Below, piece by piece: positions 3,139 to 27,359 of a stretch of DNA of 64,000 nucleotides; the first letter of the stretch is position 1; each line of letters opens with the position of its first letter. Location of the stretch: NCBI GenBank assembly GCA_964551945.1, contig CAZKFH010000003.1:9130-73129 (forward strand), in the 5' to 3' direction. The translations under genes were made by a program, and so were the position numbers. The DNA is from an uncultured Actinomycetes bacterium. Its GTDB lineage: Bacteria; Actinomycetota; UBA4738; CALAEC01. The notes under the pieces are model-generated. The model was not told where the DNA came from, made no database searches, and saw nothing but the letters and a program-made list of their open reading frames with translations.

Positions 3139-5473
<2,335 letters not shown>

Positions 5474-5474
<1 letters not shown>

Positions 5475-5755: not shown

Positions 5756-5773
5756 CGAGATCTGAACGGGAGC

Positions 5774-5799
5774 GGGGCCTCCCCATCTCGGGAGGCCCC
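5774..5799. terminator. GC-rich hairpin between convergent atpC and the first LVIVD gene
   Basis: GGGGCCTCCC / catctc / GGGAGGCCCC gives a perfect 10-bp stem with a 6-nt loop and no clear U-tract. It sits between two convergent stop codons. Confidence 0.6.
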
Positions 5800-5819
5800 G
5801 CCCTCAAGCGTTGGTCTCG

Positions 5820-7400
5820 TTACTCCATCGTCTGGGGATTCAGGTGATCCACCACCCGGGAGCCGGGATTCGGCAGGATGACCCGGAACACCACCGTGCC
5901 TCGAGCGGTATCAGGGGTGTGCACCCCGTCCGAGGCGTACACGGGGGTCCCCCCGCCGGTCTTGAACTTCGGGCCCGTGTACGGGTACGCGGACCAGTTG
6001 TCCGAGCCGCTCGCTCCCGGCCCGGCGATGTCGTAGTACGCGATCTCCTTCAGCTTCGTCGGGTCGCTGAAGTCGATCACGTCCACACCACCGGTGTACC
6101 AAGCGTTCACCAGCAGGTCCCGATTGATGCCCATGACGCTCATCCCCATGTGCGCGGAGCAGTAGGAGCCCGTTGAGGCGTCGGGACGCAGGTCCCCGAC
6201 CTGGAACTCGCTCAGGAAGGCTCCCGTTTCGACGTCGGTGAAGAACATCCGGCCCGTCTTATGCGTGCCTCCCGCGGGGTTCCAGGGGCGCGACACCCAG
6301 GTCGTCTCCGGCGGGCAGCCAGTGCCGAACGACTCGTCGACCAGGTTCAGCACGGTGCCCTCATTGTTGAACATAACGGAGTGGAAGAAGTCCACCGCGC
6401 CGGGGATGTTGCCTGTGCCCCCGGAGCTGACCTCGTCGTCGACGACGACGACTGGATTCAGGGTGTCGGGGATCCCGGTCGCCGGGTCGATGTCCCAGAC
6501 CTGTCCCTGCTCGGCACAGGCCCCGCCCGCACGGTTCGTGCCCATGTGGACAACGATGTCGTGACAGGCAACAGCCGCCTCCTCCAGGACGCCCGGCGCG
6601 CAGAGGCCCCGCTCGCACCAGTCGCTCTTCCCGTCCGGGTCACCGGGGTAGGAGATCGCCGGCTGGACGGAGCTCTCCTCCGAATCCTCCGGGGCGGCGA
6701 GCGGCACTTCGACGATCTGGATCACGCCGTGCAGCGGGTTCGCGGGGCTGCCCGGGTCCTCGTCGAATGGGTTTGCGCCGTTCGTGTGCTCGGTGTCCCC
6801 GCAGGTCGGTCCCGGCCTGAGCGGGTACGAGGAGACGTACGCGAGGAGCTTGCCCTCGTCGGCCAGCCCCGGATACAGCGTGATCGTGTGGGCACCGCAG
6901 TCCGTGTAGACGGCCGCCACCTGGGTGATCGTGGCGAACGGGTTGGCCGGGTCGTCGCTCAAGGTGAAGACCCGTACACCCTCCCAGCCATCCGGGTCGC
7001 CGTGGTCCGCCGACCGAGCGGCTCCACATTCGGGACCCTCCATGGTCCGGTCCACCGCGAGGAGCAGCAGGTCGGGGATGTCGTTGCCGTTGCGGTCCCA
7101 CAGGATCGGGTCCGCCTGCAGACCGTCACAGGCAAAGTCCCTGACGAGCTGAGGGGACGCCGGGTTGGAGATGTCGAAGATCCTGAACCCGCCGACGGGC
7201 TGGTCGCCGCGGTAGTAGCCCTGAACCGCGTAGTTGCCCCAGAAGGCGAGGTCCGAGTTGACCTTCGCGTTCGGCGACGTGAACAGCAGATCCATCTTGC
7301 TGTGCCGGTCAGCGTTGTGACCGGCGGTAGCTGGTAGGGCGAAAGCGGCCAGCGGCAAAACCAGCGCTGCCACCAAGGTCATCGTTCTGATACGGGACAT
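5820..7400 (-). CDS. Secreted LVIVD-repeat beta-propeller protein, paralog 1
   Basis: ATG at 7400 follows AAGAGGAGGA. Signal peptide MSRIRTMTLVAALVLPLAAFALPATAG. Recurrent LVIVD-type motifs (FRIFDISNPASP, VRVFTLSDDP, VIQIVEV, VDVIDFSDPTK). I reject the ORF-track start at 7493 because it lacks an RBS and a signal peptide. Confidence 0.8.
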   Translation of the reverse strand: MSRIRTMTLVAALVLPLAAFALPATAGHNADRHSKMDLLFTSPNAKVNSDLAFWGNYAVQGYYRGDQPVGGFRIFDISNPASPQLVRDFACDGLQADPILWDRNGNDIPDLLLLAVDRTMEGPECGAARSADHGDPDGWEGVRVFTLSDDPANPFATITQVAAVYTDCGAHTITLYPGLADEGKLLAYVSSYPLRPGPTCGDTEHTNGANPFDEDPGSPANPLHGVIQIVEVPLAAPEDSEESSVQPAISYPGDPDGKSDWCERGLCAPGVLEEAAVACHDIVVHMGTNRAGGACAEQGQVWDIDPATGIPDTLNPVVVVDDEVSSGGTGNIPGAVDFFHSVMFNNEGTVLNLVDESFGTGCPPETTWVSRPWNPAGGTHKTGRMFFTDVETGAFLSEFQVGDLRPDASTGSYCSAHMGMSVMGINRDLLVNAWYTGGVDVIDFSDPTKLKEIAYYDIAGPGASGSDNWSAYPYTGPKFKTGGGTPVYASDGVHTPDTARGTVVFRVILPNPGSRVVDHLNPQTME

Positions 7401-7505
7401 CCAATCCTCCTCTTTACGAGTGTTCCTGGCTGCGTCCCGGTGGGATGCGCTTGACCAGGAGGACATGACGGACTCGGGGCCGGGCGTGGCCACCGAGGTA
7501 GGGCC

Positions 7506-7588
7506 GCGGGCATCAACCTCCCTCCGGCTCCGTGAACGGGAAGGCGACGGAGCGTGGTAATCATGACTGGTTCTTTTTCACTAGGCAA
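7506..7588 (-). promoter_or_regulatory. AT-rich promoter plus conserved 5' leader module, copy 1 (upstream of LVIVD paralog 1)
   Basis: Minus strand reads TTGCCT (7588..7583), a 17-nt spacer, CATGAT (7565..7560). Then comes stem GCTCCGT/ACGGAGC, GGAGGGAGG, TTGATGCCCGC. About 77% identical by manual alignment to 11649..11731. Confidence 0.45.
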
Positions 7589-7604
7589 CTCGGGAGGTGG
7601 GAAG

Positions 7605-7639
7605 CGAACGGCCCCCGGGTCACTCCCGGGGGACGTTCG
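7605..7639 (-). terminator. Hairpin terminator downstream of LVIVD paralog 2
   Basis: CGAACGGCCCCCGGG / tcact / CCCGGGGGACGTTCG gives a 15-bp stem with one mismatch. It starts about 15 nt after the stop at 7654. Confidence 0.55.
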
Positions 7640-7653
7640 GTGGAGCGAGTCGG

Positions 7654-9501
7654 CTAGAGGGACTTCACGGTCTCGCATTTGCGGGCCCGGTCGCTTCCCG
7701 GCCCGCCGATGCAGGTGTCCTTGCCGGCCTCGCCGACCAACAGGTCGTCGCCGGCGCCACCCTTGCCGGTGTCTTTCCCGCCACCGAGACAGATCGTGTC
7801 GTTGCCCTTCCCGCCCTTGACGGTGTCCTTGCCGTTGAGCGAGGCGATCACGTCGTCACCGGTCGTGCCGTCGAGCACGTCGTTCGCCGAGCCGCCGACG
7901 ATCGTGGCGACCTTGCCCCTGCAGCGGACCTCGGGGATCAGCTGCGTCTGGGTCTGAGGGTTGAGGCTCGCCAGGTTCACCTCGCTCGCAGCGATGTCGG
8001 CCCGCAGCGAGAGGAAGCCGCGGGCGCCGCCGTCGCTCGAGGACGGGTCGTGGATACCGTCGGTCGCGTAGATGGTGAGGCTGTCTCCCGCCAGGGCCGG
8101 GCCCTCGTACCAGTACGCTGCCCAGTTGTCGAAGCCGTTCACGTCCGCGGCACTCGGCGGGATGCCACCGGCGCCGTCGTAATGGGCGACCTCGGTGGGT
8201 TTCGTCGGGTCGCTGACGTCGATCACGGTCACGCCGCCCATGTAAAGGGCGTACACCAGAAAGTCCTTGTCGTCATCGGTCGCGACGAAGTTGCCGAGGT
8301 GGGCGCTGCAGTACTCGGTCTCCCACGACTTGTCCGGCAGGAAGTGGCTGATCTTCTTGCCGGTCTGCGTGTCGAAGAAGAAGAGCCGGCCGGTGTCGCC
8401 GGGCTGCGAGGCGGTTTCTCCGGAGAGAGGTGTCTCCGGAGGGCAGCCTCCGCCGAACGACTCGTCCTCGAACTTCACGACGCTGCCGTCCCACGTGAAC
8501 GTGGCCGAGTGCCAGAAGTCCACGACCACCCCGGTGTCGGTCGCGTTTCCCGTTGTCCCGGTCTCGTCGACCGTGTCGTCGTAGACCCAGAGGGGATGCT
8601 CTGTGTCGGGGAGCCCATTCGGCTTGATCCGCCACATCTGTGCCTGCTCGGCACAGGCTGCCGCCGCGAGTCGCAGGGGGACGAACACCGCGATGTCGTG
8701 GCACGCTCGCATGCCCTGGACCAGGCTGGAGTCGGTTGCGGCGCCGAGGCCGTGCTCCGAAGGAACGAACTTGTTGTCGGGGTCTCCGGGATAGGTGATC
8801 TTCGGCTCCGCGATCTCAGTCGCCGTCACGGCGCCCAGTGGAGTCCCGGCGCTCCAGGAGACCTCGACCACCTGGATGACACCATGCAGCGGGTCCCGAC
8901 CGGCTGCCGGGCCCCGCACGGGACCGCATGTCGGGCCCGGCCGCAAGGGATACGACGCGTTGTAGAGCAGGACCCGGTTGTTCGCCGGGTCGGGCCAAAG
9001 GGTGTTCGTGTGCGAGCCGCAGTCGAGATAGACGGATCCGATCTGGCTGGGCACATTCGGGTTGGAGATGTCGAAGATGCGAAGCCCTTCCCAGCCGCTG
9101 GGGTCGTCGTGCGCGGTGGTGTTGGTCGCCCCGCAGTTCGGCCCGGACATGGTCCGATCGACGGACGTGAAGGCGATGTCGGCCTGGCCATCTTGGTCTC
9201 GATCCCAGACCGTGATGTCGTTCTGGGCCCCGAGGCAGGCCATGTTGCCGACCAAGACGGGGCTTGCCGGACTCGTGATGTCGAAGATGCGGAAGCCCCC
9301 GTAATCGCCTTGGTACGCGTAGTTCCCCCAGAAGGCCATATCGGAGTTCGTCAGGTTCCTGCTGTTTGGAGAATTGAACAGCAGCGACATGTTCGGGCTG
9401 TGTTCGTCGAACATGTTGTGGTTCGCGCCTGCGGGCAGCGAGACCGTCACGAGCGCCACCAGCGCGATGGCGAGCAGGGGGATTCGGACGCGTCTGAGCA
9501 C
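7654..9501 (-). CDS. Secreted LVIVD-repeat beta-propeller protein, paralog 2, with C-terminal RTX-type Ca-binding nonapeptide repeats
   Basis: GTG start 6 nt after GGAGG and a signal peptide. Alignable with paralog 1 along the whole propeller (FWGNYA, GGFRIFDI, SYPLRPGPTCG, PLHGVIQVVEV, ACHDI, CAEQAQMW, DESFGGGCPPET, YCSAHLG, LNPQT). Extra tail has GGxGxD-type repeats (GGSANDVLDGTTGDDVI...GGKGNDTI...GGAGDDLLVG). Confidence 0.8.
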   Translation of the reverse strand: MLRRVRIPLLAIALVALVTVSLPAGANHNMFDEHSPNMSLLFNSPNSRNLTNSDMAFWGNYAYQGDYGGFRIFDITSPASPVLVGNMACLGAQNDITVWDRDQDGQADIAFTSVDRTMSGPNCGATNTTAHDDPSGWEGLRIFDISNPNVPSQIGSVYLDCGSHTNTLWPDPANNRVLLYNASYPLRPGPTCGPVRGPAAGRDPLHGVIQVVEVSWSAGTPLGAVTATEIAEPKITYPGDPDNKFVPSEHGLGAATDSSLVQGMRACHDIAVFVPLRLAAAACAEQAQMWRIKPNGLPDTEHPLWVYDDTVDETGTTGNATDTGVVVDFWHSATFTWDGSVVKFEDESFGGGCPPETPLSGETASQPGDTGRLFFFDTQTGKKISHFLPDKSWETEYCSAHLGNFVATDDDKDFLVYALYMGGVTVIDVSDPTKPTEVAHYDGAGGIPPSAADVNGFDNWAAYWYEGPALAGDSLTIYATDGIHDPSSSDGGARGFLSLRADIAASEVNLASLNPQTQTQLIPEVRCRGKVATIVGGSANDVLDGTTGDDVIASLNGKDTVKGGKGNDTICLGGGKDTGKGGAGDDLLVGEAGKDTCIGGPGSDRARKCETVKSL

Positions 9502-9536
9502 AAAGCACCTCCGGGTCGTGGGAGTGAGCGTGCCCG

Positions 9537-9565
9537 AATCTATTGAGGGTCCCCCGGGGTGTCAA
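9537..9565 (-). promoter_or_regulatory. Near-consensus sigma70-type promoter for LVIVD paralog 2
   Basis: Minus strand reads TTGACA (9565..9560), a 17-nt spacer, TAGATT (9542..9537). It lies about 35 nt upstream of the GTG at 9501. Confidence 0.5.
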
Positions 9566-9592
9566 CTCGATCGCGCCGGGCCGGAAAGCAGA

Positions 9593-9619
9593 GGGCCCCC
9601 GGAGGATCTCCGGGGGCCC
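9593..9619 (-). terminator. Hairpin terminator downstream of LVIVD paralog 3
   Basis: GGGCCCCCGGA / ggatc / TCCGGGGGCCC gives a perfect 11-bp stem. It begins about 20 nt after the stop at 9639. Confidence 0.55.
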
Positions 9620-9638
9620 GGTGCTTGCTACTCGCGTG

Positions 9639-11576
9639 TTACTCCTTGCCGGTGTAGCGGAAGATCCACAGGCCGCTATCCCGGTCGCTCATCAGGATCA
9701 ACGGGCGCTTTCCGAAGTCCTTGCCCTGACCCTGATCCTTCTCGGACAGCAGGCACTGGCCGGCACAGAGTGGGTACACACCCCAGAAGTCATTGCCGCC
9801 ATCCGCGATGTAATGGCCGACCTCCGTGATGCCCCCGGGTCCGAATGTCGCGACCCGAAGACCAGCGTTGTAGTACGAGAAGTACGCGATGTCCTTCTTC
9901 AGCCGTGGATCCGTCTTCACCTCGTGGACCGTGAGGCTGCCGAAGCCGGACGCGTAGGCGGGGTCCTGCGCTTCCGGGATCGAGTAGGTGTCGAGCTCCG
10001 GCAGGTCGGTCGTGTTGCTGTGGAGGTGGGTGTACCCCCACCCGTCGAACACTCCGCCCCTGGCGAACAAGGTCTCCCCTGGTGTCCCGATAGCGATGTC
10101 GGCACCCTCGGATCCGGTGTAGTTCGGGGGTGAGTTGAACAGCTGGTGCATGGCCCGGTGTCCGATGCAGATCGCCGGGATCTGCTCGTCGTAGTCCTCG
10201 CCCTGGCTGCCGCAGATGAACGCGTCCGGGAGGAGGCCGTTGCGCGCTCCAACGTGACTCTGTCCGATCGCGACCAGGTCGTACCCTGCGTCCTGGCCGT
10301 TCTTCACCTTCGTGGAGAACGTGCAGGTTCCGCGACTGAACACTATGGCGTCCCGCCCGCTCACCGCCTGCGACGGGAAGCTCCCCGCCGTGCAGCCGAG
10401 GCCGCCGAACACCGTGTCTCCCGTAAAGCCGCTGGGATAGAGGTCGGCGAGGTCCGGCGTCCAGCCGAACTCGCCGCATCCCGTGTCCCCGGCGTTGGGT
10501 CCGGTCGTGATTCGGCAGAGCGTCCGGGTCGGGGAGAAGTCCTCATCGGTGGAGATGACGTAGTCGCCATCCTGGTCGAAGTAGGACTGGTGACTGTTCC
10601 CCTCGGGAATCTCGAATGCCGGCTGCTCCGGGTCGGGGCTCGAGTAGTCCGAGTCAGTGACGAAGACCGGTGCCGCCGGATTGTTGACGTTCAAGAGCAC
10701 TTGACCCGCGTCCCAATAGGAGACGAGCAGGTAGTTCGTTCCATCGATGACTTTCTGCTGCATGTCGTGATGGAAGACGGAGTCACCGTTGGCATAGGAG
10801 CCCTGCGCGCCGGGCCAGTCCTCGAGGCCCTGCTCGGCTACGAGGACGGCCGGGCCTGCGCCCGTTATCAGGGGTGTGACGTCGAAGATGTCGACATCCT
10901 TGAGATCCTGGTTGTCGGTGCCGACGGCGTACGCCTTGCCATTCCAGACGAAGCCCTGCACCGAGTGGTACGTGTGATGCGTCTGGTTGGCAACGGGCGG
11001 AACGTTTTCCCCGAAGGACCCCTTGAGTACACCCGCGGCCGGGTTCGTCACGTCCCAAAGGTTCATTCCGGCCGTGGCGGGGGATGCGGCGTTGCACACT
11101 TCGCTGTTGTTCAGGAAGTAGCGGCGGCCGTTGTATTCGATCACGTGCGCACCTTCGCCCGGGTACGTGTTCGGGGGAGAGGTGAGGAATCCGACCTTCG
11201 TGGGGCTGGCCGGGTTGCTGACGTCGACAACGTGTGTTCCGGGGCCGTGAGCTGCCGCGCCGGTACGCCCAGCGCATTCGGGAGCCCAGGCGTTGAGGTA
11301 CGCGTAGTTCCCGAACGCGGTGACATCGGCGATGCCGCCGGGGACGTTCGTAAGCTTCAGCTTGCCGACAAGCTGGATGTTCTTGTTCGACGCCGGCAGG
11401 TGACCGTCCGTCGCGCCGTGCTGGTGGTCGTCTTCCTGGACCCGCGGACCGTCTGCGGGGTCGTAATCGTCCCAGCCGTAACTATCGGGAGCTGGGGGGT
11501 TGTTCGCCGCGGCGAGCGCGCCTGATCCGAGAACCAGGGCGACGGCCACGAGCAATGACAGATATCGCTTGGGCAT
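9639..11576 (-). CDS. Secreted LVIVD-like beta-propeller protein, paralog 3, with inserted PA (protease-associated)-like domain
   Basis: ATG follows GGAGGA and a signal peptide (MPKRYLSLLVAVALVLGSGALAAA). LVIVD-type motifs (HVVDVSNPASP, MNLWDVTNP, VDIFDVTP, LLNVNNPAAP, GLWIFRY). PA-like signature at about residues 405-440 (GRDAIVFSRGTCTFSTKVKNGQDAGYDLVAIG). Confidence 0.75.
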   Translation of the reverse strand: MPKRYLSLLVAVALVLGSGALAAANNPPAPDSYGWDDYDPADGPRVQEDDHQHGATDGHLPASNKNIQLVGKLKLTNVPGGIADVTAFGNYAYLNAWAPECAGRTGAAAHGPGTHVVDVSNPASPTKVGFLTSPPNTYPGEGAHVIEYNGRRYFLNNSEVCNAASPATAGMNLWDVTNPAAGVLKGSFGENVPPVANQTHHTYHSVQGFVWNGKAYAVGTDNQDLKDVDIFDVTPLITGAGPAVLVAEQGLEDWPGAQGSYANGDSVFHHDMQQKVIDGTNYLLVSYWDAGQVLLNVNNPAAPVFVTDSDYSSPDPEQPAFEIPEGNSHQSYFDQDGDYVISTDEDFSPTRTLCRITTGPNAGDTGCGEFGWTPDLADLYPSGFTGDTVFGGLGCTAGSFPSQAVSGRDAIVFSRGTCTFSTKVKNGQDAGYDLVAIGQSHVGARNGLLPDAFICGSQGEDYDEQIPAICIGHRAMHQLFNSPPNYTGSEGADIAIGTPGETLFARGGVFDGWGYTHLHSNTTDLPELDTYSIPEAQDPAYASGFGSLTVHEVKTDPRLKKDIAYFSYYNAGLRVATFGPGGITEVGHYIADGGNDFWGVYPLCAGQCLLSEKDQGQGKDFGKRPLILMSDRDSGLWIFRYTGKE

Positions 11577-11648
11577 CGATTCCTCCAGGTGGGCTAGTGA
11601 TGCGAGCGGACAATGGCTGAAACGGATCCAGCCAGGGACTGCGAGCTT

Positions 11649-11731
11649 GCGGGCAATCAGCCTCCCTCCTCTCCGCGACCGGGCGTAGCACGGAGCGGAG
11701 TAATAATGACTAGTTCTTTCGGACTAGGCAA
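11649..11731 (-). promoter_or_regulatory. AT-rich promoter plus conserved 5' leader module, copy 2 (upstream of LVIVD paralog 3)
   Basis: Minus strand reads TTGCCT (11731..11726), a 17-nt spacer, CATTAT (11708..11703). Then comes stem CTCCG/CGGAG, GGAGGGAGG, CTGATTGCCCGC. This is the counterpart of 7506..7588. Confidence 0.45.
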
Positions 11732-11769: not shown

Positions 11770-13041
11770 GTGGACAGGCTCCTCATCACGGGTGGGCGGC
11801 GTCTCTCGGGCGCCGTCGACATCGGCGGGGCGAAGAACTCCGCCTTGAAGCTGATGGCGGCAGCCCTGCTCACGGAAGGCCGGACCATCCTGCGCAACGT
11901 TCCGGATATCGCGGACTGCCGCACGATGGCCGAGGTCCTCGAGAGGCTGGGTGCCGGCGTCGAGCGGCGTGACCACGAGCTCGAGATCGACGCCTCGGGC
12001 CCCCTCGGGATGGAGACGCCGTACGAGCTCGTGCGCCGGATGCGCGCCTCGATCCTGGTGCTGGGACCGCTGCTTGCCCGTCACGGGAGGTCTCGGGTGG
12101 CGATGCCGGGTGGATGCAACATCGGCCGGCGCAAGATCGACCTCCACGTCCGCGGGCTGGAGCGCATGGGCGCGGAGTTCTCCTACGACCACGGCTACCT
12201 GGTCGCGAACACCAAGGGCCCCTTGCGCGGCGCCGTCATCTCGCTCGACTTCCCGAGCGTCGGTGCCACCGAGAACCTCCTTATGGCCGCGGTGGCAGCA
12301 CGGGGGACCACGGTCATCGAGAACGCGGCGCGCGAGCCGGAGATCCAGGACCTGGCCGATTTCCTCACCGCCATGGGCGGACGGATCAACGGCATCGGCA
12401 CGCCGACCGTGGAGATCGAAGGGGTTGATGCATTCGTCCCGACCGATCACACCGTGATCCCCGACAGGATCGAGGCCGGGACGTTCGCGGTCGCCGCATG
12501 CATCACCGGCGGTGACGTCCTGTTGCGCGGAGCTAGAGCGGATCACCTCGATCTGCCGTTCGCGAAGCTCGCCGACGCAGGCGCGCGCATCGCGATCGAG
12601 GAAGGCGGCATCCGCGTGACGATGGATGGGCGCGCGCGCGCCGCCGACCTGGTGACCCTGCCGTATCCGGGCTTCCCGACCGACCTGCAGCCGCCGATCA
12701 TGGCGATGCTCGCGACCGCCGAGGGGACGAGCATCCTGACGGAGAACGTGTTCGAGAGCAGGTTCATGTTCGTGGACGAGCTGAACCGCATGGGAGCGGA
12801 CATCCGCACCGAGGGACACCACGCCGTGATCCGCGGCGTGCCGAAGCTCTTCTCCGCGCCGGTGCGCGCGCTCGACCTGCGGGCCGGTGCCGCGCTCATC
12901 GTGGCGGCGCTCGGTGCAGAGGGTGTGACCGAGATCACGGACGTCGGGCACGTCGACCGCGGCTACGAGGATGTCGACGGGAAGCTGGCGTCTCTGGGGG
13001 CCGAGCTCAGCCGCCAGCCGGCGATGGCGCTGGCTCCCTGA
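11770..13041 (+). CDS. murA: UDP-N-acetylglucosamine 1-carboxyvinyltransferase
   Basis: 423 aa with typical MurA blocks (ITGGRRLSGAVDIGGAKNSALKLMAAALL, LPYPGFPTDLQPP, FESRFMFVDELNRMGA, VDRGYEDVDGKL). The usual active-site Cys position reads GGCNIGRR. Confidence 0.95.
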   Translation: MDRLLITGGRRLSGAVDIGGAKNSALKLMAAALLTEGRTILRNVPDIADCRTMAEVLERLGAGVERRDHELEIDASGPLGMETPYELVRRMRASILVLGPLLARHGRSRVAMPGGCNIGRRKIDLHVRGLERMGAEFSYDHGYLVANTKGPLRGAVISLDFPSVGATENLLMAAVAARGTTVIENAAREPEIQDLADFLTAMGGRINGIGTPTVEIEGVDAFVPTDHTVIPDRIEAGTFAVAACITGGDVLLRGARADHLDLPFAKLADAGARIAIEEGGIRVTMDGRARAADLVTLPYPGFPTDLQPPIMAMLATAEGTSILTENVFESRFMFVDELNRMGADIRTEGHHAVIRGVPKLFSAPVRALDLRAGAALIVAALGAEGVTEITDVGHVDRGYEDVDGKLASLGAELSRQPAMALAP

Positions 13042-14986
13042 CCTGCTTCCATCGCATCGCTACGGCGGGATAGACCACGGCTGCGGACAGGAACAGGAAT
13101 GCGATCGATGCCGTGCCGAACGTGTCGTTGACGACGTAGCCGACCATCCCCGAGAGCGCGAGGACCACGATCGCGCGGCGCCACGGCTCATCGGCTTCGA
13201 GCGAGGGGCGGAGCCGCTTCGGTGGTCGGAGCGCAACCAGAAGCCAGGCCGGGAGCCCGAGGACCGCCAGCCACGCGCTCGGTACTTCGGACGTCAGGCG
13301 GATGTTCAGCTCGAGCCGCTGCCAGAAGATCTCCACCGCCCCGAGCACTCCACCCTGGCCCACCGCGCGAGAGACATGCGTCTCCCCGGGTAGGAGGCGG
13401 TGCGTCAGTACCACTGCGGCGACCGCCACGAGCGCGGCCCCGGCGCCAAGCGCCAGCGCGCGCCGGTCCAAACGGTTCCAGCGCTCGAACGAGAACCACA
13501 GCGCCGCCGCAACGGCGAGCGTGATGCAGCCACCAACGTCCGCGCCCAGGAATGGGAGTCCCGCGAAGGCAGCGGCGGACGCCAGCAGCGCGACTCCCCG
13601 GCGTGGCCGCATGAGGGCCGCGCCGAGCACCGCGCCGCTCAGGACGATCCCCGCGTAGGGATTGCCGAGCCCGAAGAAACGTTCGCCGTCGAGTGCGCTG
13701 CCACCGAGCAGCGGCGTGAGTCCCGAGCGCCACCCCGCAGAGACATCGATCACGACGAGGAACAGACCCGCCAGCGCGACGACCGCCACCGGTTTGCCGA
13801 GGCGATCTCCGCCGAGCCGGATCGCGAGCACCGTCAGGACGATCGCGCCACCCGCCAGCGCCGCGATCACGACCGGCCACGCGAACGTGGGGAGCAGGCT
13901 CGCCGGGACGAACGTGACGAGCAGCGCGACGGAACCGAGTCCCACCAGAGCCAGAGTCGCGAAGATCCTTCGCGGAATCCGCCACCGGCCGATCGCGAGG
14001 ATGAACCCGATCAGCAGCGAGGCGATGGTCAGCCCGAGCGCGACTTGACCGACCGGCGTCACCACGCTTCGCCACTCGAGGTATCGGCGATGAAGCTCGG
14101 TGGGAGGTTGGCCGGTCACCTCGATGGCCGACCCGACCATCTCCTCCGGTATCGGCGCGTCCAGGAAGTCGAGCACCGTGGGAGCCACGTCGACGTTCGA
14201 GACGATGTCGTCTCGTCTCGTCGTGTTCGACGTCAGCCCTCCCGGCTCGCCGCCGCCCTGCAGGAGATCATCCGGCGCCCCAGTGGCCATGATCAACGGG
14301 GTCACGGTGTCGCCGCGCTCCCGCATCTTCTCCGTCGGGGGCGTGGCCACGATCAGCACCGCCACCTCGTCCGCGGTGGTGTGCTCGAGGGCGAAGGGCA
14401 CGAGGCCGGGATCGGGTGAGACGACCAGGCTTGCGTCCTCGAGGATGCCCGTGGCTTCCTCCGCGAAGAACTCGGGAGGCAGCTCGCCGAGGATGGGAAA
14501 AGTGTTGAGGAACGCGAGCGGGATATGGCCGCTGACGTCCATCGCAGCCAGCATCGCCGGCCGGCCCAACGCCGATCCGAGGTCGATGTATCCAACGGTC
14601 AGGCCGGATTCTGCCAATACGGAGCCCAGGAGCCCCAATTCCGCCTCGCCTGCCGACTCGCGGTACGGAGCGGCATCGATCAGCACTCCGGACGCCGTCT
14701 CGGCGAAGAGCACCGGGCCTCGCGGTGCCCCCGACGCGGAGCGTCCCGCGCCGAGGCTGACGGCCGCCTGAGCCTCGTGGTGCGCCTCGCCGCTCGTCGT
14801 CATGAGGCCGAGCCCGCCGGAGCGGGCGAGGTCACTCGCGAGCGGATCTCGAAGCGCCTCCTCGTACGGCACGCCGGGCGTAACGATCAGGATGACCTGC
14901 CGATCGACCGCCGCGGAGGCCGGCGTCGCGAGGGCGCCGATCGAGAGCGCCAGACCCAGCAGGATCGACGCGGAGCGGAAGCTCAC
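13007..14986 (-). CDS. Membrane protein: N-terminal secreted alkaline-phosphatase-superfamily-like ectodomain plus about 9-10 TM helices
   Basis: GTG start 5 nt after the gmhB stop and a signal peptide. Ectodomain ends with a phosphodiesterase/sulfatase-type motif (RRDDIVSNVDVAPTVLDFLDAPIP). The C-terminal half is polytopic. The domain assignment is weak. Confidence 0.7.
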   Translation of the reverse strand: MSFRSASILLGLALSIGALATPASAAVDRQVILIVTPGVPYEEALRDPLASDLARSGGLGLMTTSGEAHHEAQAAVSLGAGRSASGAPRGPVLFAETASGVLIDAAPYRESAGEAELGLLGSVLAESGLTVGYIDLGSALGRPAMLAAMDVSGHIPLAFLNTFPILGELPPEFFAEEATGILEDASLVVSPDPGLVPFALEHTTADEVAVLIVATPPTEKMRERGDTVTPLIMATGAPDDLLQGGGEPGGLTSNTTRRDDIVSNVDVAPTVLDFLDAPIPEEMVGSAIEVTGQPPTELHRRYLEWRSVVTPVGQVALGLTIASLLIGFILAIGRWRIPRRIFATLALVGLGSVALLVTFVPASLLPTFAWPVVIAALAGGAIVLTVLAIRLGGDRLGKPVAVVALAGLFLVVIDVSAGWRSGLTPLLGGSALDGERFFGLGNPYAGIVLSGAVLGAALMRPRRGVALLASAAAFAGLPFLGADVGGCITLAVAAALWFSFERWNRLDRRALALGAGAALVAVAAVVLTHRLLPGETHVSRAVGQGGVLGAVEIFWQRLELNIRLTSEVPSAWLAVLGLPAWLLVALRPPKRLRPSLEADEPWRRAIVVLALSGMVGYVVNDTFGTASIAFLFLSAAVVYPAVAMRWKQVREPAPSPAGG

Positions 14987-14990
14987 GTCC

Positions 14991-15536
14991 TCACGCCTCG
15001 TCGAGGATCAGGTCCGCGGCCGCCGTGAGGTCGTCCACCACGACGACACCCGGGGGCGGACCGTGATTGGCGCCGGGAAGCAATCCGTGTCCGGTCCGCA
15101 CCATGATCGACCTCGCCCCGGCCGCCTGGCCGGCCTCGGCGTCGGAAGGGTGGTCGCCGACCATCCATGACCTGGACAGGTCGAGATCGAGCTCCTCGGC
15201 GGCCCGGAGCAGCATGCCGGGCGCGGGCTTGCGGCAGTCACACGGCCCGGTGAAGTCGGGGTGATGGGGGCAGTGGTAGGAGCCGTCGAGGCCCACGCCT
15301 TCCGCCTCCAGGAGCCGGCGGGTTCGGTCGTTCACCGCCAGGACCTCTGCGTCCGTGAAGTACCCGCGCGCCACTCCCGCTTGGTTCGTGACCACGACCA
15401 GCGCGTAGCCGGCATCCGTGAGCTTGCGCAGCGCCGCGGGCACGCCCGGAAGGACGACGACCCGCTCGGGCTCTCCCAGGTGACCGACCTCGTCGATGAC
15501 GGTGCCGTCGCGATCGAGGAAGACGGCAGGCCTCAA
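14991..15536 (-). CDS. gmhB: D-glycero-D-manno-heptose 1,7-bisphosphate phosphatase (HAD family)
   Basis: HAD motif I at the N-terminus (AVFLDRDGTVI), VVTNQAGVARGYF, Zn-finger-like CPHHPDFTGPCDCRKP, and WMVGDHPSDAEAG. Start taken as TTG overlapping the gmhA TGA (TTGA). The upstream part of the track ORF is Arg/Pro-rich filler. Confidence 0.8.
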   Translation of the reverse strand: MRPAVFLDRDGTVIDEVGHLGEPERVVVLPGVPAALRKLTDAGYALVVVTNQAGVARGYFTDAEVLAVNDRTRRLLEAEGVGLDGSYHCPHHPDFTGPCDCRKPAPGMLLRAAEELDLDLSRSWMVGDHPSDAEAGQAAGARSIMVRTGHGLLPGANHGPPPGVVVVDDLTAAADLILDEA

Positions 15537-16129
15537 GAGAACAGGGCGGACTCGGCCAGGGCGCACAGGGCGTGACCGACCGCGATGTGGCCCTGCTGCA
15601 CCTGTCCGCTCGTCTCGCCGGGAAGGTGGATCGAGACCTCCGCAGTTTCGTCGAGGGGCGAGGCGGCCGGTCCCACCAAGGCCACGACGCGAGCTCCCAA
15701 CCCGTTCGCATCCCGTGCCGCGCGAAGCACGTTCTCCGATCCACCACTCGTGGACAGGCACACGAGCACGTCACCCGTGCGCGCAAGTGCCCGTACCTGT
15801 CGCGCGAAGACTTCCTCGTACCCGAAGTCGTTCGCCACGGCCGTCAGGATCGACGTGTCGGTTGTGAGCGCGATGCCGGGGAGAGGATCGCGGTCGCTCG
15901 ACGCGTCCAGGCGTCCCACGAGCTCCGCCGCCAGGTGTTGGGCGTCCGCGGCGCTGCCGCCGTTGCCGCAGAACAGCACCTTCCCTCCGCCGCGCAGGGC
16001 CTCGGCGAGAAGTGCGCCGGCCCGCGCGACCAACGACGGAAGGTCGCCGTCCGCGAGCGCCGAAGCCAGCTTGGCCGAAGCCTCGAGATGTGCGCGTGCC
16101 TCGCGCTCGAGCTCTACGGGGCTCGCCAC
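15533..16129 (-). CDS. gmhA: Phosphoheptose isomerase (SIS domain)
   Basis: 198 aa with GKVLFCGNGGSAADAQHLAAELVGR, ALTTDTSILTAVANDFGYEEVF and VCLSTSGGSENV. GTG start overlaps the kinase gene by 16 nt. Confidence 0.85.
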   Translation of the reverse strand: MASPVELEREARAHLEASAKLASALADGDLPSLVARAGALLAEALRGGGKVLFCGNGGSAADAQHLAAELVGRLDASSDRDPLPGIALTTDTSILTAVANDFGYEEVFARQVRALARTGDVLVCLSTSGGSENVLRAARDANGLGARVVALVGPAASPLDETAEVSIHLPGETSGQVQQGHIAVGHALCALAESALFS

Positions 16130-17169
16130 GTCTGGACACCCCGCGGCGCGAAGTTGAACTTCACGACCCGCGCGCCGGCCTCCTCCATCGCCTGCGCGAT
16201 CGCGGGACGCCCTTCGAACGGGCAGAACAGGAGCAGGTACCCGCCGCCGCCGGCCCCGAGCAGCTTGCCGGCGAGAGCTCCCGAGCGCTTCGCTATCCCG
16301 TAGAGGTCATCGATGCGGTCATTCGTGATGCCCTCCGCCAGGTGCCGCTTCGCTTGCCACGACTCGTCCAGGATCTCGGCGAAGGAGGGAAGGTCGCCGG
16401 TGAGCAGCGCCTCCTTGAGCTCGAGCGTCAAGGCCTTGATCTGCTCGAGCGAGTCGATGGACTCGCGGCGTCCCTGCCGGTACCCCTCGACCTGCCGCTG
16501 CAGGATGCCGCCGGACACCCTCGTCATGCCCGTGTAGCACAGCAGGAGGGAGCCGTGAAGCTCGTTCTCGGTATCGGATGGGATGCGCAGGGGATTGACC
16601 ACCACGCGGTCCTCGCCGAGGAACTCGATGAAGTTGAACCCCCCGAACGTGCAGGCGTACTGGTCCTGCATCCCGCCGGCCTGCTGAAGCTGTACCCGCT
16701 CGACACCGTACGCACGGCCCGCGAGCTCGTACGGCGTCAGCGGTGTGTGGTTCAGCTCCGCGACCGCCGCGAGCATCGCGACGACGAGCGCCGAAGACGA
16801 CCCGAGCCCCGATCCCGGGGGTGCGTCGCAGAACAGGCTGAGGTCGAGCCCCGTGTGGGGGGCCATGTCCTTGAGACACGCCTTGACGAGGTCGAGGTGG
16901 CCGTCGAACACCATGTCCTCCGGCGCCGTGTACCGAGCGGAGCCGTTGTCGGAGGTGACGTGGTAGCCGGAGTCCTCACGCGCCGTCAGCGACGCGAAGG
17001 AGTAGAGGTCGATCGTGGCCGACAGCACGCAACCGCCGTGATCTGTCGGGTAGGGCATGACATCGGTCCCGCCTCCGGAGAAGCTGATCCGCAGGGGAGC
17101 ACGGGCGCGGATCGCGGTCTGTGAGGAGACGGGCTCGTGGAGCCCGGAAGGGGTGGGGGCCGTCTTCAC
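16114..17169 (-). CDS. hddA: GHMP-family sugar kinase, D-glycero-D-manno-heptose 7-phosphate kinase-like
   Basis: N-terminus RAPLRISFSGGGTDVMPY and GHMP motif PPGSGLGSSSALVVAML. Sits immediately upstream of gmhA and gmhB in the same operon. Confidence 0.8.
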   Translation of the reverse strand: MKTAPTPSGLHEPVSSQTAIRARAPLRISFSGGGTDVMPYPTDHGGCVLSATIDLYSFASLTAREDSGYHVTSDNGSARYTAPEDMVFDGHLDLVKACLKDMAPHTGLDLSLFCDAPPGSGLGSSSALVVAMLAAVAELNHTPLTPYELAGRAYGVERVQLQQAGGMQDQYACTFGGFNFIEFLGEDRVVVNPLRIPSDTENELHGSLLLCYTGMTRVSGGILQRQVEGYRQGRRESIDSLEQIKALTLELKEALLTGDLPSFAEILDESWQAKRHLAEGITNDRIDDLYGIAKRSGALAGKLLGAGGGGYLLLFCPFEGRPAIAQAMEEAGARVVKFNFAPRGVQTWRAP

Positions 17170-17175
17170 GACGGG

Positions 17176-18303
17176 TCAGTGTAGTGCGTCGATGAGGAGG
17201 CCCCGGAGTCGCCCGGAGAGGGCGTCCCAGGTCAGATCGCGGTGGACGCGATCGGCTCCCGCGGCTCCGAGCTTCGCTGCCTTCTCTGGATCGCCGAGCA
17301 GCTCGAGGATCCCCTCGGCCACCTCGTCCACCTCGTGCCCGTCGACCACGAGCCCGGTCTCGCCGTGGATGACCGCCTCGGGCGCGCCGCCGGAATCGCC
17401 GGCGACCGATGGCCGGCCCACGGCGGAGGCCTGCAGGAACACGGCCCCGAACGCCTCGACCTCGAGCCCGAGCTTCCTCGTCCGGCACGGCATCGCGAAC
17501 ACGTCCCCCGCTCGGAAGTACTGCGGCAGGATGTCGCCTGGCACCTCGCCCGCGAAGATAACCCGGTCAGAGACCTTCTTCCTCATCGCGAGACTCTGCA
17601 GACGCTCGAGATCGGGCCCGGTGCCAACGACGAGGAACCTCGCATCGGGGATCTCGCGCAGTATCCAGGGGAGTGCCCGGATGATCTTGTCCTGTCCCTT
17701 GCGCAGGGTGAGCCTGGACACGCAGCAGATCACGGGATGGTCGTCGAGGCCGTGCAGCTCGCGGACCTCCCGGTCCGAGACCCCGGGGTGGTACCGCTCG
17801 CGGTCGATCCCGGGGGGGAGCAGCTCGATCCGTGGACCCGGCCCTACCATCTGGCGCAGCTCGTCGGCCGCCCACTGCGAGACGCAGGTGACGAGGGCAG
17901 CGCGCTTCGCGATCTGCGAGAGGAGGCGACGGGTCACGGGGACCTGGCCGGCCCACAGCTCGACGCCGTGCGTGAACGCCGCGTACGGCACGCCGGTTCG
18001 CCGTTCGAGCGTTCGGCCCATCAGCGCGAGGGGAGCGGCGGCACCGAACAGCACGATGTCCGGTCGCTCTGCCTCGATCAGCTCGATGACGCGCTCTCGC
18101 ACGGGCCCGGTGGGATACATGCTCTTGGTCTCCCAGCGCACGACCGGGTGCGGGTACGTGGCGTCGAAGGCTTCGGCGCCCGGCCAGCTAGAAGCGAACA
18201 CGAGGACCTCGCCGGTTGGGAAGCGACGCAGCAGCTCTGCCGTGTAGTGGTTGATGCCGCCCACGCGGGGTGGGAAGTCGTTGGTGACGAGGAGGGTCTT
18301 CAC
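17176..18303 (-). CDS. GT4 glycosyltransferase, PimB-like mannosyltransferase family
   Basis: N-terminus LLVTNDFPPRVGGINHY (PimB-type) and C-terminal GT-B EX7E region (EAFGAVFLQASAVGRPSVAGDSGGAPEAV). First gene of the heptose operon. Confidence 0.85.
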   Translation of the reverse strand: MKTLLVTNDFPPRVGGINHYTAELLRRFPTGEVLVFASSWPGAEAFDATYPHPVVRWETKSMYPTGPVRERVIELIEAERPDIVLFGAAAPLALMGRTLERRTGVPYAAFTHGVELWAGQVPVTRRLLSQIAKRAALVTCVSQWAADELRQMVGPGPRIELLPPGIDRERYHPGVSDREVRELHGLDDHPVICCVSRLTLRKGQDKIIRALPWILREIPDARFLVVGTGPDLERLQSLAMRKKVSDRVIFAGEVPGDILPQYFRAGDVFAMPCRTRKLGLEVEAFGAVFLQASAVGRPSVAGDSGGAPEAVIHGETGLVVDGHEVDEVAEGILELLGDPEKAAKLGAAGADRVHRDLTWDALSGRLRGLLIDALH

Positions 18304-19893: not shown

Positions 19894-20250
19894 ATGAGCA
19901 CAGCGCGCAAGGTCCTTATCGGAGGCGTGACGGCCGCACTGCTCGTGTCCACGGGTGGCGTCGGTCTGGCCAAGACGTACACGGTGAAGGCCACTTCCAG
20001 CGACACGTGGAAGAAGGTCCACACGTACATCGGCAAGGGCGACAGCGTGAGCTGGAAGAATCCCGACAGCGAGACCCACGATCTCAACGCGTACGGCGGC
20101 GGTTGGAAGCTGAGCGAGGAGCTCAACCCCGGTGACAGTGCCAAGAAACGCTTCAGGAAGAAGGGGACGTTCCGCTACCGATGCGTGATCCACTCGGGGA
20201 TCGTCAGCGGCGCCTGCAAGGGCATGTGCGGTTTCGTCCACGTCCTCTGA
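19894..20250 (+). CDS. Small secreted cupredoxin-like protein
   Basis: 118 aa with a signal peptide. Plastocyanin-like layout (GDSVSWKNPDSETHD ... GTFRYRCVIHSGIVSGACKGMCGFVHV) with candidate His/Cys/His/Met ligands and an unusually long Cys-to-Met loop. Confidence 0.65.
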   Translation: MSTARKVLIGGVTAALLVSTGGVGLAKTYTVKATSSDTWKKVHTYIGKGDSVSWKNPDSETHDLNAYGGGWKLSEELNPGDSAKKRFRKKGTFRYRCVIHSGIVSGACKGMCGFVHVL

Positions 20251-20277: not shown

Positions 20278-21939
20278 TTACGCCGCGACCTGACTGGTTA
20301 CGGCGACGGTTTCGAACTCGTCGTCGCCGGCCCACGTCACCGTCACGTTGTGCGTCCCGGCCGACAGACCGAGGTCCGCGGAGAAGGAGCCGTCGGCTCC
20401 CGTGGTGGTCGTCAGCGTGGTGCCGCCGGAACGGATCTCGACGGTCTTGCCGGCGAGAGGCTTGTTGACCCAACCGTCGGCGGTGAGGACCGCGTACCGG
20501 TCGAGTGCGCCGCTGACCGAGCCGCCCGTGGCAGAGTCGCTGACGCGCAGGCGCGACACCTTCTTGGGCACGGCGCCCTCGAAGTGCATGACGTCCACCC
20601 CACGGATGAGCCCGTTGGCGTAGTAGTGGTCCTTGGCGACCGAGATGTCGAACGGCAGCCACTGCGACGCGTTCACCAGGTCGCCGTCCGCGATGTAGTT
20701 GCCCAACGTGTTGCCCCACGTGGTCGGCCCAAGGCCGCGTCCGGGGTTGTGCGAGTACTCGGTGTACTCGCCGCCGGAGGTGAGCGTGGCCGCCCTCGGG
20801 TCCACGACCCAGGTGCCGCCCATGTACAGGCCCACCGTGATCAGCAGGCGCTCGGGCTGGATGTGGAAGCTGTGCAGGTTGCAGGGGCCGAAGTTCGGGT
20901 TGGTCGTCGGCGGGGCCGGAACGGGTTCGGTTGCTGCACCCGTGTAGGGCGCGAACCATGTCCCCATCTTGATCGGGTTCGTCAGGCTGGCTCCGGGCTT
21001 GTACTTCCCGCTGATGTCGTAGAAGTGGAGGCCGCCGCCGGGGCAACGGACGTACGTCTGACCCGTGCCGTTGGCGCCCGCACGGAAGTCGGCGACTGCC
21101 ACGAACGAGGAGTCGGGGGCCGGGTAGGCCTCGTGGGCAAATTCGATGTCGCGATCCCGGTGCTCCAGGACCAGTGTGGGGTTGGCGGGGTCGCTCGTGT
21201 TGAGGATTCCCCATTTCCCATCCCCCGCGGCACTGCAGAAGCCCACGTAGGTGAGGTCGGGATTGTTCGGGTCCGGATAGAACTCGTGGCCGCAGAGGAG
21301 GCCCAGGCCCGGGATGCCCTTCAGGCCGAGGTCCACGGGGTTCCGGGGGTTCGTGTAGTCGATGATGTGCGTCGGCAGCGTCGTGTAGACATAGTTGTCG
21401 CCGATCATCCGGATGGTGTGCGGACCGTCAGTGGCAGGGCTGCTCACCCCGCCTAGCCGTTTCCCCGGGACTGGGGCCGTCTCGGCGGTGCCCAACAGAA
21501 CCGGCGCCTCGATGTCCGAGATGTCCACGAACTCGACGCCGGGGGTCATCCCGTGCCCCACCGATTTGCCCTGTTCCTCGATCGAGAGGGCGACGATGTT
21601 CCGCTCCCCGTTGACCTGCACCCAGGGGTGGTAGTTGACTCCCGGGCTCACGTACCTGCTGACGGTGCTGGGCTTCAGCGGGTCAGAGATGTCGACGATG
21701 TCGAATCCGTTCCCGTGGGCAGCAGCCACCGCGTAGCGCTTCAGGGTGCCGTCGGAGAGGCGTCGCTCGAAGAAGTCGAGGGCGTTGCCGCCGACATTGA
21801 AGGCGTTCCCGCCGGAGTCCGAGTGAACGTCGTGGTGGCTGACGGTGCCGGTGGAGGGAATCTGCGCGGAGGCAGCGCCGTTCACGAGCTGCACTGCGAG
21901 GAGAAGCACGAGGGAGAGGGGTAGATACCGTCGCAACAT
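20278..21939 (-). CDS. Secreted LVIVD-like beta-propeller protein, paralog 4, with C-terminal carboxypeptidase-regulatory/Ig-like domain
   Basis: ATG at 21939 lies 5 nt after GGAGG and 11 nt after the upstream stop. Signal peptide MLRRYLPLSLVLLLAVQLVNGAASA. Motifs FDIVDISDPLKP, VEFVDISDIEAP, ILNTSDPANP. Tail reads GKTVEIRSGGTTLTTTTGADGSFSADL. Confidence 0.7.
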   Translation of the reverse strand: MLRRYLPLSLVLLLAVQLVNGAASAQIPSTGTVSHHDVHSDSGGNAFNVGGNALDFFERRLSDGTLKRYAVAAAHGNGFDIVDISDPLKPSTVSRYVSPGVNYHPWVQVNGERNIVALSIEEQGKSVGHGMTPGVEFVDISDIEAPVLLGTAETAPVPGKRLGGVSSPATDGPHTIRMIGDNYVYTTLPTHIIDYTNPRNPVDLGLKGIPGLGLLCGHEFYPDPNNPDLTYVGFCSAAGDGKWGILNTSDPANPTLVLEHRDRDIEFAHEAYPAPDSSFVAVADFRAGANGTGQTYVRCPGGGLHFYDISGKYKPGASLTNPIKMGTWFAPYTGAATEPVPAPPTTNPNFGPCNLHSFHIQPERLLITVGLYMGGTWVVDPRAATLTSGGEYTEYSHNPGRGLGPTTWGNTLGNYIADGDLVNASQWLPFDISVAKDHYYANGLIRGVDVMHFEGAVPKKVSRLRVSDSATGGSVSGALDRYAVLTADGWVNKPLAGKTVEIRSGGTTLTTTTGADGSFSADLGLSAGTHNVTVTWAGDDEFETVAVTSQVAA

Positions 21940-27355: not shown

Positions 27356-27359
27356 ACCT

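Follow-up and report, generated by a model that had tools for sequence, protein, structure and literature searches.

What do secreted β-propellers built from LVIVD repeats do outside the cell? The question is raised by a stretch of 64,000 nucleotides (hereafter the window; contig CAZKFH010000003.1, positions 9,130 to 73,129) from an uncultured Actinomycetes bacterium of a permafrost metagenome, with a G+C content of 66–70%. Three such propellers, P1, P2 and P3, are encoded head to tail on its minus strand (genes 1, 2 and 3), and a fourth, P4, at a second site (Table 1). The secretomes of bacteria and archaea commonly include LVIVD propellers, which tend to be dismissed as surface repeats. An earlier reading of the window from its letters alone (the sequence-only reading) had placed all four genes at the coordinates that we find, and had stated that the LVIVD family has no established biochemical function. 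The literature does treat the LVIVD repeat as a surface feature without a known role, but the only relative of solved structure, Sb-PTE (the phosphotriesterase/haloalkylphosphorus hydrolase of Sphingobium sp. TCM1; 5HRM, 5IOJ), is a binuclear-metal hydrolase, and the statement stands in the former sense only. On balance we lean towards reading P1–P4 as Sec-exported, disulfide-stapled propeller metalloenzymes with a putative Sb-PTE-type centre at the top of the central tunnel, to which RTX, PA and Ig-like modules have been added, presumably as accessories for localisation or substrate access.

Remote homology to Sb-PTE and a conserved histidine ring

All four proteins score above the Pfam gathering cutoff for LVIVD (PF08309; 20.2 bits), with 24.1 bits for P1, 52.7 for P2, 24.5 for P3 and 29.5 for P4. 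AlphaFold2 models of P1 and P3, built from input alignments of 50 and 52 sequences, reached a mean predicted local distance difference test (pLDDT) score of 87.2 and 85.0 and a predicted template modelling (pTM) score of 0.87 and 0.84, respectively, and both display the strand pattern of seven four-stranded blades closed by an N-terminal strand. When these models were compared with the PDB using Foldseek, Sb-PTE (5HRM) was the top fold match for each. The P1 model matched it at E 5.6e-10 with a template modelling (TM) score of 0.53–0.56, and the P3 model at E 3.8e-11, the next match (1e-6) being four orders of magnitude weaker; the remaining matches of both models were generic WD40-like or five-bladed propellers. 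Sb-PTE has been described as a familiar binuclear metal centre set within a seven-bladed propeller (Mabanglo et al. 2016).

The relationship is also visible in sequence comparisons. P2 matches Sb-PTE in a single-sequence search at E 3.8e-4, and a diverse P1-type profile (A3) matches 5hrm_A at E 2.1e-7, setting the histidine of the family motif C[ST]AH (P1 H417) on Sb-PTE H475. A profile of the P3 family (A9) matches 5ioj_A at E 1.9e-6 and sets the invariant P3 motif GEGxH (E141, H144) on Sb-PTE E201 and H204. The diverse profile was needed here, as a profile of close homologues (A2) found only a 28-residue LVIVD match in Sb-PTE, and single-sequence searches of the PDB with P3 and P4 returned no relevant match. 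The P1 and P3 families themselves are aligned by hhalign over blades 1–2 only (probability 92%). No NCBIfam model came near its cutoff in a scan of P1–P4; the choice-of-anchor B model (TIGR04312) requires 100 bits, and P1 and P2 score 20.1 and 19.2. Collectively, sequence profiles identify the family as LVIVD/Sb-PTE-like propellers with remote homology to Sb-PTE, and no well-characterised enzyme family claimed P1–P4 in the hidden Markov model (HMM) or structure searches.

Export of the four proteins, as proposed by the sequence-only reading, is supported by their N-termini, each of which runs from charged residues through a hydrophobic stretch to an AxA signal sequence (assigned by eye). No LPXTG/sortase motif or C-terminal membrane anchor was found in P1–P4, which, together with the signal peptides, supports an extracytoplasmic location.

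The strongest conservation falls on histidines, acidic residues and cysteines. The Cys/His blocks that the sequence-only reading had recognised in P1 and P2 (CG[AS]HT, SYPLRPGPTCG, ACHDI, CAEQxQxW, GCPPET and YCSAH[ML]G) do not vary among 50 P1-type homologues. In relatives with identities as low as about 30%, H171, H224, H280, H340 and H417 are still nearly invariant, as are D50, D97, D117, E140, D281, D355, E356 and D443. In the P1 model, H171, H280, H340 and H417 each open strand A, the innermost strand, or immediately precede it, in blades 3, 4, 5 and 6; the equivalent place in blades 1, 2 and 7 is taken by D50, D97 and W469, and in blade 5 strand B ends with E356. P3 keeps H204, H270, H329 and H551, likewise at strand A starts in its model, along with an extra H144, E141 and D344-E345, and P4 keeps H174, H218, H269 and H356. 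The histidines that begin the innermost strands of blades 3–6, together with carboxylates, are hence kept in all four paralog classes. In propellers, the start positions of strand A encircle the top entrance of the central tunnel. Since each ring histidine begins a strand A, standard propeller geometry leads us to deduce that they come together at the tunnel mouth.

The binuclear centre of Sb-PTE is reportedly ligated by E201, H258, H317, H389, E407 and H475. If this list is right, these ligands match blade by blade D97, H171, H280, H340, E356 and H417 of P1, and presumably in the same way E141, H204, H270, H329, E345 and H551 of P3. H475 (P1 H417) and E201 (P3 E141) are aligned by the profiles; the four others were matched by blade position and spacing only. 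With the His ring kept in four classes and partly aligned with Sb-PTE ligand positions, a metal site is likely in all four paralog classes, which lends weight to the earlier suggestion that the proteins may bind metal.

The conserved cysteines appear to have a different role. Every P1-type member has eight of them (91, 125, 168, 200, 279, 295, 362 in the B5–C5 loop, and 414 in P1 numbering), and many have exactly eight in total. A distant class, P5, lacks both 279 and 295; P3 retains only the equivalents of 91 and 125; P4 retains those of 279 and 295 and of 362 and 414, and some P4 homologues drop the cysteine of the CGH motif together with its partner. Because cysteines are gained and lost in fixed pairs across the paralog classes, the eight probably form four disulfides (91–125, 168–200, 279–295 and 362–414). 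Each bond would tie a His-carrying D–A loop, just ahead of the ring histidine, to a neighbouring B–C loop. The sequence-only reading had named all-disulfide cysteines and scattered histidines as findings that would speak against metal binding. The cysteines do look like disulfides, which counts against a Cys-based metal site, but the histidines line up at one place by topology and the ring is left intact.

If the favoured reading holds, one histidine each from blades 3, 4, 5 and 6 (P1 H171, H280, H340 and H417) would together encircle the opening of the central tunnel, and a mono- or binuclear metal site would be completed by the carboxylate at the end of strand B in blade 5 (E356) and an acidic residue of blade 2 (P1 D97, P3 E141). 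Such a site could activate water or O2 on a substrate bound at the top face. The added modules would leave this core unchanged: the RTX β-roll of P2 and the Ig-like tail of P4 would probably serve Ca-dependent or wall association, and the PA insertion of P3, which would be placed over the active-site face, may act as a lid or substrate-binding element. What the data show directly is the domain content, the predicted fold, the remote homology to Sb-PTE, the residue conservation and the gene context, whereas metal binding, disulfides and catalysis are inferred.

Several points weigh against this reading. The likeness to Sb-PTE is remote, with 11–13% identity and TM scores of about 0.5 or lower, and the profile alignments are short (46–100 residues): A3 covers blade 6 only, and A9 runs from the N-terminal strand through blade 1 into the beginning of blade 2. 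The P4 profile matches Sb-PTE weakly (E 0.03), with the register shifted by one blade, and a sub-profile of P4 blades 3–5 (A12) found no Sb-PTE match. Further, the clustering of the histidines and the Cys–Cys distances are deduced from propeller topology, and the blade 2 residue is Asp or Gln in P1/P2 as against Glu in P3 and Sb-PTE. Homologues listed in the searches carry generic annotations only ('hypothetical'). Finally, the association with copper genes described below is seen in only about one in eight loci, and might stem from a common secretome or metal-stress island, or from what the cupredoxin partners require.

Gene context and competing explanations

To place the family in its surroundings, open reading frames (ORFs) were called and clustered in 80 related loci, and lineage-specific housekeeping synteny was set aside. 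In 10 of the 80, CopD or CopC-CopD is encoded no more than 1.5 kb from a family gene. An adjacency of about 12% compares with well under 1% expected by chance (within 2.5 kb), a rough estimate and not a computed statistic, which assumes about two CopD genes per 5 Mb genome. GSDH-like propeller genes adjoin family genes in 8 loci. One locus (L019) shows a tight operon of P5, GSDH-like, CopC-CopD and P1-like genes with gaps of 25–31 nt, and another (L053) the order unknown gene, CopC-CopD, DUF1775/YcnI, P1-like, P5 and GSDH-like. A third (L034) has a P1-like gene followed by Cu/Zn-SOD, an unknown gene and CopC-CopD, and a fourth (L037) two P1-like genes and CopC-CopD, with two DUF1775 genes and another CopC(D) farther on. 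The DUF1775/YcnI and CopC-CopD/YcnJ proteins serve in the binding and acquisition of copper (PMC8424229). The window has a CopC-CopD fusion of its own on the far side of P4 (Table 1); an S8 subtilase gene (23803-25395, plus strand) is convergent with it, the two ends lying 1 nt apart.

P4 directly follows a DUF7133/GSDH-like gene in the window and in all three orthologous loci examined (L114, L115 and L116), with a stop/start overlap of 4 nt in L114 and L115. The cupredoxin-like domain of the partner matches Copper-bind (plastocyanin/azurin) above cutoff in L114 and weakly in the window, with no match on record in L115 and L116. As the gene pair recurs in three unrelated contigs and overlaps in two, its arrangement suggests that P4 and its DUF7133/GSDH-like partner are a two-protein extracellular redox module. 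P4 also adjoins, in the window and in L082, the gene of a 118-aa cupredoxin-like protein with candidate type-1 copper ligands (His, a Cys-x-x-His motif and Met), extra Cys and no Pfam match; its homologue in L029 adjoins another LVIVD gene. Near the P4 orthologues of L114–L116, S8, M28-PKD and M14 peptidase genes form clusters.

Outside the cell, Cu and Zn outcompete Mn for metal loading. Given Sec export with folding outside the cell and the recurrent CopCD, YcnI, SodC and cupredoxin neighbours, copper (or zinc) is a more likely candidate than the manganese of the Sb-PTE crystals.

The same context can be taken further, to copper redox enzymes that would receive copper via CopCD/YcnI and electrons from an sGDH-like dehydrogenase or a cupredoxin and would oxidise an extracellular substrate, in analogy to a lytic polysaccharide monooxygenase (LPMO) served by a pyranose dehydrogenase that depends on pyrroloquinoline quinone (PQQ). 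We regard this, the main rival, as possible, though unlikely; within the metalloenzyme reading, the data are compatible both with hydrolysis, by analogy with Sb-PTE, and with copper-dependent redox chemistry, as suggested by gene context. It would account for the CopCD, YcnI, SodC, GSDH-like and cupredoxin genes, and Sec export and disulfides do imply metal loading outside the cell. It could also draw on the N-terminus. As the sequence-only reading had noted, the mature N-termini of the family are His-rich; in P1/P2-type proteins the motif X-H-N-x-D-x-H-S is conserved after the predicted AxA cleavage site, and the segment is probably flexible, with residues 21–28 of P1 below pLDDT 50 in the AlphaFold2 model. 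N-terminal Xaa-His binds Cu(II) in peptides. A histidine brace, however, requires His at position 1, and the conserved His stands at position 2 of the predicted mature protein; the residue ahead of it (T, S, D, N, G or K) is inconsistent as a signal peptidase -1 residue. Further, the sole homologue of characterised function is a hydrolase that was crystallised with Mn, most loci have no copper gene near their family genes, and no recognised copper enzyme is among the top 50 fold matches of the P1 and P3 models; the copper propellers sought (the CuZ domain of N2O reductase and thiocyanate dehydrogenase) were absent from these matches and from the PDB sequence searches alike. A pairing of the proposed kind has a precedent in LPMO and AA12 (PMC5960967). 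The boldest version of the idea, slightly less likely again in our view, would make the LVIVD propellers of soil actinobacteria a novel class of copper enzymes acting outside the cytoplasm. The His4/carboxylate centre in the propeller tunnel, loaded through CopCD/YcnI and reduced by the co-encoded sGDH-like dehydrogenase or cupredoxin, would then act oxidatively on a substrate outside the cell.

Compared with a metalloenzyme of the Sb-PTE type, metal binding without catalysis and adhesion alone seem less probable, since the polar ring is kept in otherwise dissimilar paralogs and P1 has no adhesin-like module. As extracellular binders or scavengers of metal (copper), the proteins might hand it over to YcnI or CopC or buffer it at the cell surface; the adjacent CopCD and YcnI uptake genes, the flexible His-rich N-terminus with a His-lined tunnel and the several paralogs in each genome would fit. 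Conservation across orders is nevertheless very high (60–76% identity), the ordered buried polar set (D50, D97, D117, E140, D281, D355 and E356) is more active-site-like, a disulfide-stapled propeller of 500 aa would be a costly chaperone, and the putative PA-domain lid points to a macromolecular or peptide substrate, so that we consider this account improbable. Equally improbable is the classical view of LVIVD proteins as structural surface or adhesion proteins, in which the propeller would offer a platform for binding proteins or glycans and the tails (RTX and Ig-like) would be adhesin modules: although the literature describes a cell-surface repeat with a possible role in attachment, and family members carry or adjoin RTX, Big-like, DUF11 and Calx-beta modules, P1–P4 have no wall-anchoring signal, the most conserved of them, P1, lacks any added module, and neither the His/Asp/Glu ring, kept at only 21% paralog identity, nor the enzyme homology would be explained.

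Table 1. Positions of the LVIVD genes, their modules, neighbours and transcription signals within the 64,000-nucleotide window
Feature	Position	Strand	Remarks
P1	5820-7400	-	526 aa; secreted LVIVD seven-bladed propeller without added module
P2	7654-9501	-	615 aa; P1 paralog with C-terminal RTX-type tail
P3	9639-11576	-	645 aa; diverged LVIVD propeller
P4	20278-21939	-	553 aa; LVIVD propeller, Ig-like C-terminal tail at ~20281-20532
RTX-type tail of P2	7657-7932	-	~8 GGxGxDxUx nonapeptides, four Cys; follows shared LNPQTQ motif
Alpha/beta insertion of P3	10083-10529	-	holds PA domain; ~residues 350-498, blade 5 B–C loop, directly after conserved TDEDF
Cupredoxin-like secreted protein	19894-20250	+	118 aa; convergent with P4; weak plastocyanin NCBIfam match
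DUF7133/GSDH-like propeller	21951-23681	-	C-terminal cupredoxin-like domain; stop 11 nt before P4 start
CopC-CopD fusion	25397-27388	-	YcnJ-like copper transporter; 3.5 kb from P4
GC hairpin after gene 1	5770-5803	-	-35.4 kcal/mol, z -5.05; common to convergent atpC
GC hairpin after gene 2	7605-7639	-	-27.7 kcal/mol, z -3.18
Intrinsic-terminator-like hairpin after gene 3	9593-9619	-	12-bp stem, T-rich tail; -34.7 kcal/mol, z -6.39
Promoter-like site, gene 2	9537-9565	-	TTGACA-17-TAGATT
Promoter/leader element, gene 1 copy	7504-7588	-	TTGCCT-17-CATGAT, 5' hairpin, GGAGGGAGG
Promoter/leader element, gene 3 copy	11647-11731	-	element in common with gene 1

Age, modules and transcription of the array

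The sequence-only reading took the array for a recent expansion, and on this point it has to be corrected. P1 and P2 are 52% identical and P1 shares 21–23% with P3 and P4, so that identity between the paralogs spans 21–52%, whereas each of the four has orthologues of 50–85% identity in other Actinomycetota. With the tandem order beside atp and murA recurring in L029, L036 and L082 as well, the paralogs long predate the source genome, as judged from these sequences. More than 1,700 P1-type homologues were detected, and those listed are named only 'hypothetical'; identities of 60–76% extend across Jiangella, Kribbella, Actinophytocola, Solirubrobacterales, Gaiellales, Thermoleophilia and Acidimicrobiia, and a library clustered at 50% identity holds 1,023 P1-type representatives (E <= 1e-3). 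P3 has 701 homologues at 53–84% identity and P4 has 84. Across the family, the annotations of listed homologues are generic (hypothetical, LVIVD repeat or PA domain protein). The family is found mainly in soil Actinomycetota, and its cultured carriers include Jiangella aurantiaca 8K307 and Kribbella turkmenica 16K104.

Tandem sets take several forms: P3-like then P1-like genes, twice over (L014); four or five P1-like genes (L023); P2-like, P3-like, P1-like and P1-like genes adjoining murA (L036); and P3-like, P2-like and P1-like genes adjoining atpD (L029). In the window, P1–P3 are flanked on one side by the atp operon (atpD 4029-5474; atpC, with its end near 5755), which is convergent with them, and on the other by a divergent murA (11770-13041). 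One locus, L082, the closest syntenic relative, repeats nearly the whole 20-kb neighbourhood, with P4, the small cupredoxin, sugar-nucleotide genes, murA, P3, P2 and atpC. P1 is absent there, and between P3 and P2 stands a Calx-beta gene (11995-13239, opposite strand), so the content of the array differs even among close genomes. Between the two LVIVD sites of the window, positions 13007-18303 encode a large polytopic membrane protein, a HAD phosphatase, an SIS isomerase, a GHMP kinase and a GT4 glycosyltransferase; the block looks like a heptose or sugar-nucleotide pathway, and L082 keeps its gene order. Elsewhere, in L001, L002 and seven further loci, the gene just upstream of the P1 orthologue encodes a conserved membrane protein that is polytopic, has roughly 215 aa (219 aa in one) and lacks a Pfam match. 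As a general partner of the family this protein was rejected: it belongs to a single lineage, and the window has no homologue.

The added modules are located as the sequence-only reading had described them. HemolysinCabind covers residues 536–605 of P2 with 53.4 bits (cutoff 23), and PA residues 391–478 of P3 with 32.6 bits (cutoff 23.9), with no peptidase domain attached; against Pfam, the Ig-like tail of P4 matches Big_3_5 and CarboxypepD_reg below cutoffs only. The P2 tail finds the RTX blocks of CyaA and serralysin in the PDB and shows a 54-nt periodicity in the DNA. Scores of 37 bits for RTX_toxin (cutoff 1000) and 21.5 for serralysin (cutoff 500), with the lipase models likewise far short of their cutoffs, place P2 outside the RTX toxins, serralysins and lipases, with which its sequence shares only the nonapeptide repeat module. 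The Cys-containing RTX tail occurs on P2 (window, L036 and L082), on the P3 orthologue of L029 and on some P4 homologues, and this distribution bears out the module shuffling that had been proposed. The P1-type proteins end in a conserved HLNPQTQ.

For gene 1, the mechanically called ORF extends 93 nt further upstream (7401-7493, minus strand), to a GTG at 7493. AGGAGG precedes the ATG at 7400 and a typical signal peptide begins there, for which reason 5820-7400 is, by its sequence features, the better model.

Each of the tandem genes was thought to have its own promoter and hairpin terminator. A strong GC hairpin does follow each gene, but only that of gene 3 has a T-rich tail accepted in the terminator scan; the promoters of genes 1–3 are consensus matches only. 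As far as these hairpins and promoter-like elements indicate, the view of P1, P2 and P3 as separate transcription units is supported. Differential regulation, also proposed, fits gene 2, which has a promoter-like site of its own with both hexamers present upstream of the P2 orthologue in L082, but not genes 1 and 3, which have an element in common. This 85-nt element consists of TTGCCT-17-CAT(G/T)AT, a hairpin with a CUCCG/CGGAG core and then GGAGGGAGG. Its two copies agree in 83% of the first 42 nt, though the encoded proteins are just 21% identical, and over 84 nt the gene 3 copy shares 94% identity with positions 9846-9929 of L082, upstream of a P3 orthologue whose protein is 73% identical. 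Because the copies are alike despite diverged proteins and are kept at 94% in L082, comparison of these sequences marks the element as a conserved regulatory element of the lineage. Searching 81 further related loci and the JGI metagenomes for the element gave low-GC chance matches only. The Rfam scan of the whole window gave no match, so the shared leader is not a described riboswitch. A putative ORF of 44 codons begins just after GGAGGGAGG in the leader of gene 1 and overlaps the start of the gene. RNA-seq runs were searched for the window sequence, and no run contains it.

BlaI-type repressor genes recur beside family genes in 5–6 loci. In L012, L015, L053 and L078, loci of metagenome-assembled genomes of which three are Solirubrobacteraceae, such a gene comes directly after the P1/P5/GSDH cluster, and in L053 and apparently L012 it is followed by a putative BlaR1-like membrane protein. 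By position, the repressor may be a local regulator of the LVIVD/GSDH cluster. As evidence for copper regulation the BlaI-type repressors were rejected, lacking the Cys motif of CopY.

Significance and comparison with known systems

The new element in these results is that a large family, with more than 1,000 homologues, is tied to the sole LVIVD-like enzyme of solved structure. The family thereby gains a concrete, mutable set of candidate catalytic residues and named candidate partners (CopCD, YcnI, sGDH-like dehydrogenases and cupredoxins), and the cultured carriers make it directly testable. Should the copper link prove true, an enzyme class would be added to the extracellular copper biochemistry of soil Actinomycetota; should the hydrolase reading prove true, the proteins would be candidates for the turnover of organophosphates or other esters in soil.

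Of the known systems, Sb-PTE has in common with the window proteins the seven blades of LVIVD-like repeats and, if the ligand match holds, the single His per blade on four consecutive blades, with carboxylates. The window proteins differ from it in their four predicted disulfides, the X-H-N-x-D-x-H N-terminus, the HLNPQTQ C-terminal motif, long loop insertions at the top face, the RTX, PA and Ig-like modules, and a gene context of copper and dehydrogenase genes. The LVIVD (PF08309) and choice-of-anchor B (TIGR04312) proteins are likewise bacterial and secreted, and the LVIVD score is passed, but the definitions of these families include neither the His ring nor the eight cysteines and terminal motifs of the window family. 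RTX (HemolysinCabind) β-roll proteins resemble P2 in the nonapeptides of its tail; P2, however, has an N-terminal Sec signal instead of a C-terminal type-1 secretion signal, its tail is short with four Cys, and its host is of the Gram-positive type. The pairing of an LPMO with the PQQ-dependent pyranose dehydrogenase AA12 is paralleled in the window by a secreted, His-rich putative metalloprotein encoded beside an sGDH-like propeller with an electron-transfer domain. This likeness is one of analogy only, as the window proteins are unrelated to LPMOs in sequence or fold, their conserved N-terminal His is at position 2 and not 1, and the electron-transfer domain of the partner is a cupredoxin and not a cytochrome.

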